Below are positions 1 to 9,117 of a stretch of DNA of 9,305 nt, piece after piece. Origin of the DNA: a virus (Duplodnaviria; Heunggongvirae; Uroviricota; Caudoviricetes); IMG/VR virus record IMGVR_UViG_2711768006_000002, one strand, 5' to 3'. The position numbers were made by a program, and so were the translations under genes. The stretch's first letter is position 1. Every line of letters starts with the position of its first letter. The notes beneath the pieces are model-generated. The model saw only the letters and a program-made list of their open reading frames with translations. It was not told where the DNA came from and made no database searches.

Positions 1-12
1 TCCAATGTGCAT

Positions 13-46
13 AAAAAAATCCGGAAACAAGTGAGCGTTTCCGGAT
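13..46 (-). terminator. Intrinsic terminator immediately downstream of the portal gene
   Basis: On the minus strand a perfect 10-bp inverted repeat (plus 19-28 ATCCGGAAAC / 37-46 GTTTCCGGAT) with an 8-nt loop is followed by a T-run (plus A-run 13-18). The portal stop codon is at 80-82. Confidence 0.6.
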
Positions 47-79
47 TCTTACACAGCCACTGGATCGGTCAACTGATCC

Positions 80-1236
80 TTAACTGATCGGCATTACACC
101 ACCGGGACGCGGATTCATATCTTCCAGGTCGCGGCAGTCATTGGAAGAGTAAATTCCCCAGTTGATCCCGGTGGCGTAGGCTTCAAAACGGGACTTCATA
201 TCCCCGCGCAGTAACGCCCCGGCGTTAAATTTGGCGTAATAAACGCCCTGCTTACTTTTTCGTACCAGTCCGGTGTTGATCCGCTGTTCGATGCGGGTCA
301 GATACGGCACCAGTGAATAGTTGATAAATCCCAGCCCCAGCTCTTCGATATTGTTGAAGGTGGCGCGATCGGTGTTCTGCACCATGTGCAACGGCACCCG
401 GAACAGACGACAGATTTCTTCCAGCTGAAACTTGCGGGTTTCCAGGAACTGACTGTCCTCGGCGTTCAGCGCCATCGACTTCCAGTCCAGCCCCATTTCC
501 AGAATCATCGGGCGGTGAGCATTGCCAAGCCCCGTGTGACACTCCTCAAAATCTTTCTTCAGACGCTCGTAAGCATCCGGCGTGAGCTTTTGTTCCGTAC
601 GCAACACACCGGATGTCACCGCACCATTACTAAACAACCTGGCACCGTGCTCCTCGGTTGCCGCTGCCAGTGAAATGGCCTCACGCGCATACGCAATGGG
701 ATTCAGCCCGACAAGTCCATCCAGCGTCAGGGTGCGCACATGCCAGATTTCATTCTGGGTCAACACATCCACGGAACCATCCGGAAACGTCACCTGATAA
801 ACCGGCTGCCACTGGCTGTTCAGCTTCGGTTCCACACAGCCCGGATCTATCGGAAGAAGCTCCACCACTTCTCCCAGTGCCTTTACCTTGTAGGCGTAAA
901 AATTCCCCCGTAGACACAGGCAGACAATAACCAGCTCCCAGAATTCCTGCGGTGTCATGTAGCCATTAGGTTTTGCCGAAACCAACTTATGCAGTCGTTC
1001 ATCCACCGCCCGTGTTTTCAGGGTACCGCTGATTTTGTAGAGACTGCAGGGCAGCATACCAACAGACTCTGCCAGCACCCTGACGCAAGAATAGACCGCC
1101 GTCAGGCGCATGGCCCGCTGGCTACTGATCCGCTTTCCGGTATAGGTGTCGTATGACAGCCCGATAGCATCAGCAGTTCTGCTGGCGTGGTCACCGGCAC
1201 ATCGCTTTTTCGTTGAAATAATCCCGAAAAGAACAC
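80..1236 (-). CDS. Phage portal protein, HK97 family; 5' end apparently frameshifted, start uncertain
   Basis: The 415-aa ORF contains a portal-like core (AMRLTAVYSCVRVLAESVGMLPCSLYK near the N-terminus, NDCRDLEDMNPRPGG at the C-terminus). The ORF-track start at 1327 is a TTG in a TTG-TTG-TTG run with no RBS and overlaps the upstream small ORF by 92 nt. A GTG at 1236-1234 overlaps the upstream stop (TAGTG) and has GGAGGT 5 nt upstream, but it is in another frame that stops at about 1105. The first in-frame ATG is at 1111. Confidence 0.8.
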
Positions 1237-1418
1237 TATTTACCTCCGCCGACAGACTGCCGTGTACGGTCGAGATATCGCGCCACCAGCCACGACCAGA
1301 ACAGGCACAGCGCCCCGGCAACAACAAAACCCGCCGGGGGATAAATCAGCCAGGCACCATACGCCAGCAAAAGCGCACCCAGCACGCCCACCAGAGGCGC
1401 GAGAATCAGCATGATCAT
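1236..1418 (-). CDS. Small membrane protein (60 aa, two predicted transmembrane helices) between large terminase and portal
   Basis: ATG at 1418 with GAGGT 4-5 nt upstream, 11 nt after the large-terminase stop. The product [60 protein letters not shown] is hydrophobic with a basic C-terminus. No homolog recalled. Confidence 0.5.
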
Positions 1419-3775: not shown

Positions 3776-4126
3776 TCACCGGATTCGTTCGCGCGCTGTT
3801 TTCGCTTTATGGCAGGGCCAGCACAGACTCTGCAGGTTGCTGTCTGCGTCTGTTCCGCCATGCGCTTTCGGGATGATGTGGTCGACGGTTTTCGCCTCGC
3901 TCACCACACCGACACGCAGACACAACTGACACAGACCTTTATCGCGCTTCAGAATACGGGCACGAATCACCGTCCATTTTGAGCCATAGCCACGCTGGTG
4001 GCGGCTCAGTCCGCGCTGGTGCTGCACCCAGCCTTCACCGCGATGTTTATCGCAGTAACCCGAACTGTCTGTGGTTGTACCTGCACATCCACGCTTACGG
4101 CAGGCACGTGGGATTAGTGATGGCAT
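3776..4126 (-). CDS. HNH endonuclease (phage packaging-associated, HK97 gp74-like)
   Basis: 116-aa ORF with ATG at 4126 and GAGGT 5 nt upstream. It is Cys/His-rich with CxxC pairs and an HNH-type motif (DHIIPKAHGGTDADSNLQSLCWPCH). It sits immediately upstream of the small terminase. Confidence 0.88.
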   Translation of the reverse strand: MPSLIPRACRKRGCAGTTTDSSGYCDKHRGEGWVQHQRGLSRHQRGYGSKWTVIRARILKRDKGLCQLCLRVGVVSEAKTVDHIIPKAHGGTDADSNLQSLCWPCHKAKTARERIR

Positions 4127-4168: not shown

Positions 4169-4411
4169 CTACTTAATGCACTGAGTGCGGATATACTCCT
4201 GTGCCCCTTCCAGTTGCATCTGCATCGTCATCAGCCGCTCTCTGAGGGTGAAATAATCCCGTTCAGCGGTGTCTGCCAGTCGGGGGCTGGTTGCATTATC
4301 CACGCCGGAGGCGGTGGTGGCTTCACGCACTGACTGACAGACTGCTTTGATGTGCAACCGACGACGACCAGCGGCAACATCAGCGCGCAGAGTTTCATTT
4401 TCAGCTTTCGC
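4169..4411 (-). CDS. Rz: Rz i-spanin, C-terminal portion (5' part lost in N run)
   Basis: The visible 80 aa (AKAENETLRADVAAGRRRLHIKAVCQSVREATTASGVDNATSPRLADTAERDYFTLRERLMTMQMQLEGAQEYIRTQCIK) are near-identical to the C-terminal half of lambda Rz as I recall it. Stop TAG at 4169-4171. Confidence 0.88.
   Translation of the reverse strand, partial: AKAENETLRADVAAGRRRLHIKAVCQSVREATTASGVDNATSPRLADTAERDYFTLRERLMTMQMQLEGAQEYIRTQCIK
4231..4398 (-). CDS. Rz1: Rz1 o-spanin lipoprotein embedded in Rz in the +1 frame
   Basis: Product MKLCALMLPLVVVGCTSKQSVSQCVKPPPPPAWIMQPAPDWQTPLNGIISPSESG has a lipobox (VVGC) and a penta-proline tract, matching lambda Rz1. The true start may lie 1-5 codons upstream inside the N run (lambda Rz1 begins MLKLKMM). 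Confidence 0.85.
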   Translation of the reverse strand: MKLCALMLPLVVVGCTSKQSVSQCVKPPPPPAWIMQPAPDWQTPLNGIISPSESG

Positions 4412-4610
4412 NNNNNNNNNNNNNNNNNNNNNNNNNNNNNNNNNNNNNNNNNNNNNNNNNNNNNNNNNNNNNNNNNNNNNNNNNNNNNNNNNNNNNNNNN
4501 NNNNNNNNNNNNNNNNNNNNNNNNNNNNNNNNNNNNNNNNNNNNNNNNNNNNNNNNNNNNNNNNNNNNNNNNNNNNNNNNNNNNNNNNNNNNNNNNNNNN
4601 NNNNNNNNNN
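4412..4610. other. Run of 199 N (assembly gap or masked segment)
   Basis: Continuous N. The flanking reading frames cannot be joined: the endolysin N-terminus is above it and the Rz C-terminus below it, in different frames, with about 600 nt of expected coding sequence unaccounted for. Confidence 0.95.
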
Positions 4611-4700
4611 ACCACCTGGGCCAGTGATTAACACAGATGCTATAGCAACAGCCCCACCACCAATAGCAGCTGCAACAGCCTTGCGTAATGATGGCGACAT
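4611..4700 (-). CDS. R: SAR endolysin (phage 21 R21-like lysozyme), N-terminal 30 codons only
   Basis: ATG at 4700 with GAGGTG 4 nt upstream. The product [30 protein letters not shown] matches the signal-anchor-release domain of phage 21 endolysin. The stop of the upstream holin overlaps the start (TAATG). Confidence 0.8.
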
Positions 4701-4867
4701 TATTCACCTCTCGCAGCCTTACGCTTGTCTTCTCTTATTTTGAAATACAGATTTGTCAGATAAGTCAGAAGCCCCAGAAGCAGACTTCCCAGCACACCAA
4801 TCGCAGCCCACTGTGATGGACTGACCTGATCCAACCACTGCAAAAACCAGTAGCCGGCACTGCCGGC
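4700..4867 (-). CDS. S: Pinholin (phage 21 S21-like class II holin), C-terminal 55 codons; 5' end lost in N run
   Basis: The visible [55 protein letters not shown] is near-identical to the S21 pinholin as recalled. Stop TAA at 4700-4702. Confidence 0.82.
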
Positions 4868-5117
4868 NNNNNNNNNNNNNNNNNNNNNNNNNNNNNNNNN
4901 NNNNNNNNNNNNNNNNNNNNNNNNNNNNNNNNNNNNNNNNNNNNNNNNNNNNNNNNNNNNNNNNNNNNNNNNNNNNNNNNNNNNNNNNNNNNNNNNNNNN
5001 NNNNNNNNNNNNNNNNNNNNNNNNNNNNNNNNNNNNNNNNNNNNNNNNNNNNNNNNNNNNNNNNNNNNNNNNNNNNNNNNNNNNNNNNNNNNNNNNNNNN
5101 NNNNNNNNNNNNNNNNN
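4868..5117. other. Run of 250 N (assembly gap or masked segment)
   Basis: Continuous N lying between the tRNA array and the holin. It hides the holin start (about 16 codons) and roughly 200 nt or more of upstream sequence. Confidence 0.95.
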
Positions 5118-5180
5118 GAGTCAGACATTCCCACACAATATTGTGTCAGTGCAAATAACAACCTTCGTCTCAAATCTCGC

Positions 5181-5255
<75 letters not shown>

Positions 5256-5258
5256 ATA

Positions 5259-5334
<76 letters not shown>

Positions 5335-5336
5335 GC

Positions 5337-5413
5337 TGGCCCACCACCGAGGACTCGAACCTCGCACCGTCAACTTAGAAGGTTGATGCTCTATCCGGAT
5401 GAGCTAGTGGTGG
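5337..5413 (-). tRNA. tRNA-Arg (anticodon UCU, reads AGA/AGG)
   Basis: Reverse complement reads CCACCACTAGCTCATCCGGATAGAGCATCAACCTTCTAAGTTGACGGTGCGAGGTTCGAGTCCTCGGTGGTGGGCCA. Anticodon stem TCAAC/GTTGA, loop CUUCUAA, T-loop TTCGAGT, encoded CCA. Confidence 0.85.
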
Positions 5414-5414
5414 T

Positions 5415-5491
5415 TGGTGGCCCTTGCTGGACTTGAACCAGCGACCTGGCGATTATGAGTCGCTCGCTCTGACCAACTGAGCTAAAGGGCC
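5415..5491 (-). tRNA. tRNA-Ile2-like (anticodon CAU, ileX/ileZ type)
   Basis: Reverse complement reads GGCCCTTTAGCTCAGTTGGTCAGAGCGAGCGACTCATAATCGCCAGGTCGCTGGTTCAAGTCCAGCAAGGGCCACCA. Anticodon loop CUCAUAA. It closely resembles E. coli ileX (minor isoleucine tRNA) rather than tRNA-Met. Confidence 0.85.
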
Positions 5492-6724: not shown

Positions 6725-7111
6725 CTACATAATTCGTTCTACGTATCTGTCCATCTCCAGCCGGATATCAAGCATCATCAACATGCCATCAATAACCCCT
6801 TCCGCTTTCTGCAGGCGCTTGCCAATACAGGTATCCGAACACCCATGTTTCCGTGCCAGACTCATAAAAGTCATTCCACCTACGTAATAATCCACCAGCA
6901 AATCGTGCAAATCCTGATTTTTCTTGTTCAACCGGGCCATACAGCCACAAATTATCATTGCATCATCATCAGAACACTGAGGGCGTGATTTCACTTTCGA
7001 CGGAATTAACCCTTTAAAACCAGCAGCGATCGACGCCCAGGATACATCTTCATGAGTGTTTGCAGCCCAAGCCCCCCACCGTTCCATAACCTGCTGAATA
7101 TCACGCGCCAT
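6725..7111 (-). CDS. Q: Late-gene antitermination protein Q (phage 82/21-type)
   Basis: ATG at 7111 with AGGTGA 6 nt upstream, overlapping the rusA 3' end. Product [61 protein letters not shown] matches the Q family found in E. coli prophages. Confidence 0.9.
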
Positions 7112-7472
7112 CGTTATCACCTGTGATTTCATAAATCTTCACGCCCAGTCGCCCACCAGGAACGAGCTGACCGCGCACAATATTGATTTCATCAAACTGC
7201 TCGTCGTCTATGAGTAGTCCGGCATGCGTCAGCGCATCCAGTGGTGCTTTCAGGATATTGTCCAGGTCACGACGGCGCTTATCCGGTGGCTCTGCAATAA
7301 TCTTTATCGCCAGCCTTCCGGACAGGTTTAATTTCAGCCGCTGCTGGCGAACAATTAGCGTCACATCACGGCGATAACGCTCACCAACTTTTGATACAAA
7401 ATATGTGCTGCCACGACGTCGCCAGTAAGTATTCACCGTCGGCGGATAAGGTAAAATAAACTCATGGCGCAT
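7101..7472 (-). CDS. rusA: RusA-family Holliday junction resolvase
   Basis: 123-aa ORF with ATG at 7472 overlapping the upstream stop (TGATG). It has the RusA-like catalytic region [29 protein letters not shown]. Its position just upstream of Q is typical of the nin region. Confidence 0.88.
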
Positions 7473-7714
7473 CAGCGCAGCACCTCCTGCACCATTTTTT
7501 CAAACTTTCCAACTTTGGTTTCCAGCTCTGCCACACAATCAACGAGCTCATCCACCGCTTTTTGTGCGCGATGTTTCGCCTGCATCAGTTCCCTGAGCGC
7601 TGGCACCATATCCCGACGAATGGCATCTTTTGTTACACCTGTTTTTTCCAGTTGTTCCGCCTGTCGCAACATTTCCTGCGCGTGTTTACGCAATTGTTCA
7701 GAGGTAAAAGTCAT
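7472..7714 (-). CDS. Hypothetical 80-aa protein, predicted helical/coiled-coil, nin-region
   Basis: ATG at 7714 (the ORF track begins at an upstream TTG), 12 nt after the helicase stop. Product MTFTSEQLRKHAQEMLRQAEQLEKTGVTKDAIRRDMVPALRELMQAKHRAQKAVDELVDCVAELETKVGKFEKMVQEVLR is charged with heptad-like spacing. No family recognised. Confidence 0.6.
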   Translation of the reverse strand: MTFTSEQLRKHAQEMLRQAEQLEKTGVTKDAIRRDMVPALRELMQAKHRAQKAVDELVDCVAELETKVGKFEKMVQEVLR

Positions 7715-7725
7715 TGTCTGGTTGT

Positions 7726-9117
7726 TCAAAAGAAACGCTCCATCTTACTGCTGTCGGTACGTGTATTGCTGTATCTGCGCGGCTGGGGCTGCCGCATTGG
7801 GGTGGAAAGAACCTGTGCGCTTTCCTGGTCCACAGGCAGAAAATGTCCGTTATAAAAACGCCGGTAAATCGTCCCCAGAGAACCGTTACGTTGTTTCGTG
7901 ATATTAATTTCTGCTATGCCTGTAGCCTGTGTATCCGGGTTGTACACTTCATCCCTGTAAAGCATCAGAATGATGTCTGCATCCGCCTCTATTTCTCCGG
8001 AATTTTTCAGGTCTGAGTTCATGGGACGTTTATTGGGTCTGGACTCCACACCGCGGGAGAGCTGGCTCAGCGCAATCAACGGAAAACCACCGGATTTTGC
8101 CAGGCCTTTAAGCCCCTTTGAGATTTCACCCACGGCAAGGTCATGACGCCCCGTGGTTCGGGTTTTTATCAGCCCGAGATAATCAACCACCACCAGCGCC
8201 GTTTCCGGATGTTTAATCAGATGGTGTTTCGTTGTTGCGCATATCTCATCAATGGTCAGGTTCGCCTGGTCCACCATCCAGATATTGCGCCCGGTCATCC
8301 GCCCCACCCCTTGTGAGAAACGCGCCCAGTCTTCATCTTCAAAGTGAGCCACAGATTTCAGGCGTGATACTGGCATCCCTCCAGCCGCAGACACCATACG
8401 TTCACCAATCTGGATGTTCGCCATCTCCATGGTGAACAGAAGCACACCATGCCCCTGCTCAGTCACCTTGTCGATGATGTCCAGCGCAAGTTCGGTTTTC
8501 CCCATCGAAGGACGGGCGGCAATGAATACCAGGTCTCCGGGCTCCATACCGCCTGTTTTTGCGTCCAGTTCATCAATACCGGTCATCAACGTCCTGGATT
8601 TCTCCAGCCCCTGATTCCGGCATTCAACACGCTCAACCACTTCCGGAAGCACATCATCAATATGTACCGGCTGAATGACGCCCTTTCCTGTCGACAGTGT
8701 GACCATCATGTTCTGCGCATCCTTCAGGGCATCTTCAGCTGCTTCACAGGTATGCGCATCACGTAATTTCTGCAGCGCCTCATTCAGTGTTTTTTCTGCA
8801 TCGCGCAGTGCGGCATTGCGCCGCAACGCTGCAACATAGTGCTCCAGTGAAGACTTCACCCAGGTTTTACGCCCGGTATCAGTAATCACCGGGGCAAGTT
8901 CCGGCATCTCATTACACAACAGCACGGGGTCAATCACTCCTGAAACACGGGCCTGTCTGCAGATGCCTGTGTAGATATCCCGATACGCTCGTACAGAAAA
9001 AATGTCCGCCGGTAGTGTGATCAGAATATCCATCACTTCATGATCTGCCCCACGCAGAAAGAATGCGCCAATGACAGCGCCTTCCAGGTCATCATTACGC
9101 CAGACTGGTGTTGTCAT
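7726..9117 (-). CDS. Replicative DNA helicase, DnaB family (phage-encoded)
   Basis: The ORF track starts at GTG 9258. The ATG at 9117 is preceded by AGAGGTG and gives MTTPVWRNDDLEGAVIGAFFL, a DnaB-like N-terminal domain. Walker A (FIAARPSMGKTELAL) and DnaB-like C-terminal motifs are present. Confidence 0.9.
   Translation of the reverse strand: MTTPVWRNDDLEGAVIGAFFLRGADHEVMDILITLPADIFSVRAYRDIYTGICRQARVSGVIDPVLLCNEMPELAPVITDTGRKTWVKSSLEHYVAALRRNAALRDAEKTLNEALQKLRDAHTCEAAEDALKDAQNMMVTLSTGKGVIQPVHIDDVLPEVVERVECRNQGLEKSRTLMTGIDELDAKTGGMEPGDLVFIAARPSMGKTELALDIIDKVTEQGHGVLLFTMEMANIQIGERMVSAAGGMPVSRLKSVAHFEDEDWARFSQGVGRMTGRNIWMVDQANLTIDEICATTKHHLIKHPETALVVVDYLGLIKTRTTGRHDLAVGEISKGLKGLAKSGGFPLIALSQLSRGVESRPNKRPMNSDLKNSGEIEADADIILMLYRDEVYNPDTQATGIAEINITKQRNGSLGTIYRRFYNGHFLPVDQESAQVLSTPMRQPQPRRYSNTRTDSSKMERFF

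Follow-up and report, generated by a model that had tools for sequence, protein, structure and literature searches.

The portal gene in the window, by which we mean the whole 9,305-nucleotide stretch of the viral record IMGVR_UViG_2711768006_000002, is very probably dead: frameshifted near its 5' end and truncated by an IS4 copy at its 3' end, it lies in a prophage remnant of Shigella sonnei that has undergone ordinary decay. This is nothing new in kind. An earlier note on the same letters had described the 5' end of the gene as split across two reading frames and had left three possibilities: the prophage is decaying and the frameshift is real, the draft assembly is wrong at this point, or the portal is a truncated one that begins with the ATG at 1111. 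The first of these is supported by the homologous genes, which are single-frame and compared with which the window lacks one base.

The translation of the portal frame (1174-80) matched the Pfam profile Phage_portal (PF04860) over profile positions 2-321 of 321 with a score of 359.4 bits, the gathering cut-off being 39.1, and thus shows the family match of an HK97-type portal. By its sequence, we assign the gene to the HK97-type portals (PF04860), as a pseudogene of that family, since neither an intact ORF nor a complete head module was found (see later in the text). Over ymfR and the portal gene, the window shares 93.7% nucleotide identity with phiP27; the values are about 89% for SfIV, SfII, SfI and ST64B and up to 93.6% for E. 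coli prophages. The annotated portal genes of phiP27, SfIV, E. coli A36 and E. coli C311 are all 1242 nt long (413 aa) and in a single frame; they begin at an aligned GTG that overlaps the stop of a ymfR-like gene, and they share 20 of the first 21 residues. As in the window, the phiP27 portal gene (NP_543090, L38) follows the genes for an HNH endonuclease, a small terminase (P27 family/Terminase_4), TerL and a 60-aa membrane protein in this order, and both phiP27 and the E. coli prophages of the same type have the GTG start overlapping the upstream stop. However, compared with phiP27 the window is missing a G at codon 22 as well as the final 33 codons, and the prohead protease and capsid genes that come after the portal gene in phiP27 and E. 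coli A36 are absent in the lineage of the window. Once the frame is repaired, the N-terminus in the window reads ...PAELADAIG exactly as that of the SfIV portal does, whereas SfIV, SfII, SfI and ST64B are complete phage records with intact 413-aa portal genes. The coordinates of the features discussed here are listed in Table 1.

Table 1. Features of the portal region and of the adjoining prophage remnant, in coordinates of the window
Feature	Position	Strand	Basis or remark
IS4 left end, starting TAATGCCGATCAGTTAAGG	1..96	minus	100% match to IS4 (InsG) copies
Rest of the portal CDS, codons 22-380 of about 413	97..1174	minus, -1 frame	Complete Pfam Phage_portal domain; homology to phiP27
Frameshift-derived 44-codon ORF	1102..1236	minus	21 native portal residues and 23 out-of-frame residues; TGA 1104-1102
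First ATG of the portal frame, M43 of the intact protein	1109..1111	minus	Start used by gene callers for a 343-aa product
1-nt deletion, true frame junction	1174..1175	minus	DNA alignments to intact homologs; re-insertion of G gives a single ORF
Native portal start GTG	1236-1234	minus	Aligned with annotated portal CDS starts of phiP27, SfIV, E. coli A36 and E. coli C311
ymfR-like gene, 60-aa membrane protein	1236..1418	minus	In E. coli A36 and phiP27 the homolog carries the annotation 'protein YmfR' or 'membrane protein'
Shine-Dalgarno sequence GGAGGT	1247-1242	minus	Sequence; 5-nt spacer to GTG; invariant across aligned homologs
TerL gene, intact, 577 aa	1430..3163	minus	Pfam TerL_ATPase and TerL_nuclease; identical protein in 4305 blocks, including Ss046 CP000038
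HNH endonuclease gene, appears intact	3776-4126	minus	Just upstream of the small terminase gene (Terminase_4, P27 family)
Four prophage-borne tRNA genes (Met-CAT, Arg-TCT, Thr-TGT, Gly-TCC)	5181-5491	minus	Flanked by the ORF6N gene and the lysis genes

The start region reads as the earlier note had it, with GGAGGT 5 nt upstream of the GTG and the TAG stop of the ymfR-like ORF (1238-1236) overlapping this start as TAGTG. The frame opened there does end close to the proposed position of about 1105, at the TGA 1104-1102. The resemblance of its peptide to a portal N-terminus holds for the first 21 residues, which, according to the alignments and the repaired ORF, are the only ones that belong to the portal; the last 23 (LMLSGCHTTPIPESGSVASGPCA) are out-of-frame read-through. 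The portal frame lies at -1 relative to the GTG frame and is open from TTG 1327 to the TAA 82-80, and neither an ATG nor a GTG start was found in it between TTG 1327 and ATG 1111. It was correctly seen that the portal core continues in a different frame, but its homology does not start at about 1125: it starts already at the codon GCT 1174-1172, from which this frame reads ADAIGLSYDTYTGKRISSQRAM.... The ATG 1111-1109 sits 4 nt upstream of the TGA that ends the 44-codon ORF, and a Shine-Dalgarno sequence before it is absent.

DNA alignments explain the change of frame by the loss of one G of an ancestral GG (CTGGCT to CTGCT) between positions 1175 and 1174. At the aligned site, the homologs read GA(G/A)CTGGC(G/A/T)GA and the window GAACT-GCTGA, the sole gap in the window and a one-base gap against all four intact homologs (phiP27, SfIV, E. 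coli A36 and E. coli C311). A single-base indel had been predicted near 1120-1130; one base is indeed missing, about 50 nt farther upstream. Set against intact portals, a comparison that the earlier note had proposed, the window is thus short by exactly one base, and the homologs begin at the equivalent GTG. The indel is not a multiple of three relative to single-frame homologs, as in a frameshift pseudogene, and because of the 1-nt deletion and IS4 the conserved start and C-terminus are not linked by one uninterrupted ORF. When the G is put back, a single ORF of 385 codons is obtained, in which 370 of 380 aa are identical to the phiP27 portal (97% over 380 aa). Since one restored base suffices for this identity, the two-frame pattern is not due to chance. 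The repaired gene differs from that of phiP27 by 68 synonymous and 10 non-synonymous codons, indicating that the portal gene was under purifying selection until recently. An exact look-up of the 44-aa frameshift peptide returned no record; gene callers probably omit it or record it as beginning with M.

To follow the deletion in other strains, a comparison that had also been proposed, we used two sets of loci from an assembly collection. An exact-protein look-up of the large terminase of the window gave 4305 blocks, of which ten loci were examined, and an exact look-up of the 343-aa product from ATG 1111 gave 1695 blocks, of which ten further loci were examined; as two assemblies were returned by both look-ups, the 20 loci represent about 19 different assemblies. 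The deletion allele, CCAGCAGAACTGCTGATGCTATCGGG (26 nt), was identical in all 20 of these S. sonnei loci, among them many complete chromosomes, short draft contigs and CP000038.1, which is S. sonnei Ss046 (PMC5447701, where the reference given for Ss046 is Yang et al. 2005). The lesion is therefore reproducible in independent assemblies, as in a frameshift pseudogene, and 16 of the 20 loci are identical to the window over the full 1440 nt that run from ymfR up to the IS4 end. A homologous segment was present in 1382 complete E. coli genomes, none of them more than 95% identical, and all 12 of the E. coli matches listed span 202 nt against 201 in the query, which means that the matches listed carry the extra base. 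The presence of the allele in the S. sonnei loci, as opposed to E. coli genomes that never exceed 95% identity, identifies the window as S. sonnei and the deletion as fixed in that lineage. An exact 40-nt pattern across the deletion was absent from the GTDB species representatives, which we take to mean that no species representative carries the S. sonnei allele, and this is not evidence against the allele.

At its other end, the portal frame is fused to IS4 after codon 380: ...NPRPGG is followed by VMPIS and the TAA 82-80, all contributed by the element. IS4 replaces the last 33 portal codons, and the C-terminal segment found in phiP27 and SfIV (DVYLTPMNMTT...) is gone. In one related locus (L007), the element is complete (7068-8493, 1426 bp); its right inverted repeat matches, and its right end reads ...CTTAACTGACTGGCATTA; the transposase in related loci has the Nterm_IS4 and DDE_Tnp_1 domains, so that both the terminal inverted repeats and the DDE transposase of an IS4 element were found. 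No target-site duplication was seen between the left flank CCCGGTGGTG and the right flank CAGCCCTTGAG (L007), which indicates that the junction is the endpoint of a deletion or rearrangement and not a simple insertion. Beyond IS4, L007 has raiA-pheL-pheA, and most other loci have an IS3-type element inside IS4 and then bamE, so the downstream region varies between strains. Phage protease and capsid genes were absent beyond IS4 in the loci fetched, and as chromosomal genes follow the element in related genomes, the protease, capsid and tail genes have been lost. From the head module of terminase, portal, prohead protease and major capsid genes, only the upstream half is kept, with TerS, TerL and ymfR. 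The IS4 truncation, which the earlier note did not mention, is a stronger sign of a dead prophage than the frameshift.

These observations suggest a simple course of decay. The ancestor was a phage of the phiP27/SfIV/ST64B type with an HK97-like head module. Loss of a G from the GG at 1175/1174 would make translation from GTG 1236 leave the portal frame after residue 21 and run into a stop after 44 codons, and an IS4-associated deletion or rearrangement would have removed the last 33 portal codons together with every head and tail gene that lay downstream. In the S. sonnei loci examined, both lesions have become fixed. We infer that no functional portal is made: at most, the 44-aa peptide would be produced, possibly with small amounts of a fragment from ATG 1111 that is truncated at both its N- and C-terminus; with the capsid genes gone, this fragment would have no assembly partners. 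Outside the two lesions, the portal frame is clean and the whole Pfam domain is kept, suggesting that the decay is either recent or slow.

Other explanations of the two frames fare badly against these data. An error of assembly or sequencing, with a portal 5' end that is in truth intact, might be suspected because the window is a draft with two N runs (4412-4610 and 4868-5117) and because single-base indels are a frequent assembly artefact. However, the allele occurs in all of the loci fetched, from the Ss046 reference and complete chromosomes to draft contigs, the site is a GG dinucleotide with no long homopolymer, and the resulting 343-aa product is recorded in 1695 blocks. A systematic error common to all platforms, at a GG dinucleotide and across many independent deposits, is implausible. 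The same allele in about 19 assemblies including Ss046 points to a fixed mutation, and the draft-error option of the earlier note, whose probability we consider negligible, is to that extent excluded. Hardly more credible is the idea that programmed -1 ribosomal frameshifting or transcriptional slippage joins the frames, so that a full-length portal is still made. The passage from the GTG frame to the portal frame does require a -1 shift, the frames overlap by about 130 nt, and a run of five A residues (CGA AAA AGC, from window position 1210) lies inside the overlap. Yet this run also occurs in the intact single-frame homologs and so is not a recoding signal, a shift there would swap out 11 conserved residues, and the 3' end of the portal gene and its partner genes are missing anyway. 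A run of five A residues is too short for efficient transcriptional slippage. In the 44-codon ORF, neither a homopolymer longer than A5 nor a slippery heptamer X XXY YYZ of any phase, the zero frame included, was found, and the two-frame arrangement is not conserved, all four annotated homologs being single-frame and all 12 E. coli matches listed having the extra base. With no slippery heptamer and with single-frame homologs, programmed frameshifting is unsupported.

It is very unlikely that the gene now encodes a truncated 343-aa portal (residues 43-380 followed by VMPIS) whose translation begins at ATG 1111, perhaps through termination-reinitiation, and which is preserved for some host or anti-phage role. 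The position of this ATG just ahead of the stop of a well-initiated ORF would suit translational coupling; the product has the Pfam Phage_portal domain in full, does not differ between the S. sonnei loci and is predicted by gene callers. On the other hand, the ATG has no Shine-Dalgarno sequence, intact homologs never use this start, the conserved C-terminal GGDVYLTPMN segment is missing and the protease, capsid and tail genes are gone downstream. Isolates of S. sonnei share a recent ancestor, so that their identical sequences are to be expected and do not point to selection. This third option of the earlier note is thus not favoured, the homologs starting at the equivalent of the GTG; homologs that begin at the equivalent of ATG 1111 and are unlike the GTG-frame peptide, which it had regarded as speaking against a split gene, did not turn up, given the 20 of 21 shared residues. 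A more elaborate version, in which the 44-codon ORF acts as a reinitiation leader and a domesticated 343-aa portal fragment is kept for an S. sonnei host function, is highly improbable; if it were true, the fragment could, for example, poison the portal rings of superinfecting phages of the phiP27/Sf type. A start at TTG 1327 would give a single-frame protein of 415 aa (414 aa in Ss046), and we see almost no chance of it. The portal frame is open up to this TTG, and a 414-aa product is called in CP000038 (L010), but the extension crosses ymfR in a frame other than that gene's own, the ~50 residues at its beginning have no counterpart in any intact portal and the homologs start at the GTG. We rejected this start as out-of-frame read-through of ymfR with an extension that has no homology.

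For annotation, a portal pseudogene means that the locus should be entered as one frameshifted and 3'-truncated gene and not as a 343-aa or 414-aa 'portal protein'. Both the deletion and the portal-IS4 junction occur in every S. sonnei locus examined and could therefore serve as lineage markers. A literature search for a description of the S. sonnei portal pseudogene gave nothing relevant. Gene decay driven by insertion sequences is characteristic of Shigella, and the Ss046 genome described by Yang et al. in 2005 is reportedly an example of such pseudogenisation. As in those pseudogenes, an IS copy, here IS4, truncates the gene, and there is nothing distinctive in the present case; the locus is a further example of IS-driven prophage decay in Shigella and matters little beyond annotation. 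In the cryptic prophage e14 of E. coli K-12, the beeE portal pseudogene lies just downstream of ymfR and the head genes are lost. The portal pseudogene of the window would be of the same kind, in another host and with independent lesions.

The rest of the remnant keeps genes for a DnaB-like helicase, RusA, a Q antiterminator and an ORF6N protein, four tRNA genes, lysis genes and the genes for the HNH endonuclease, TerS, TerL and ymfR. The pairing of an HNH endonuclease with the terminase is usual in HK97-like cos phages. Two N runs lie in the lysis region (4412-4610, 199 nt, and 4868-5117, 250 nt). Complete S. sonnei genomes have real sequence of 626 and 665 nt in their place (L010 2127-2752 and 1205-1869, for example); the runs, being shorter, are gaps or masks whose lengths do not reflect the true ones, and the ORFs spanning them (e.g. 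4700-5173 and 4169-4615) are artefacts. Some variation was also seen among the related loci. Over the 4.4-kb segment compared, CP021144.1 (L009) shows a further length difference of one base relative to the window, and no 60-aa ymfR product is called in its ymfR region; either a mutation specific to this strain or an error in long-read assembly could account for the length difference. Several recent assemblies (L017, L021, L022 and L023) call TerS and/or TerL as split fragments, owing perhaps to indels in the assemblies or to a remnant that has decayed further in some strains.
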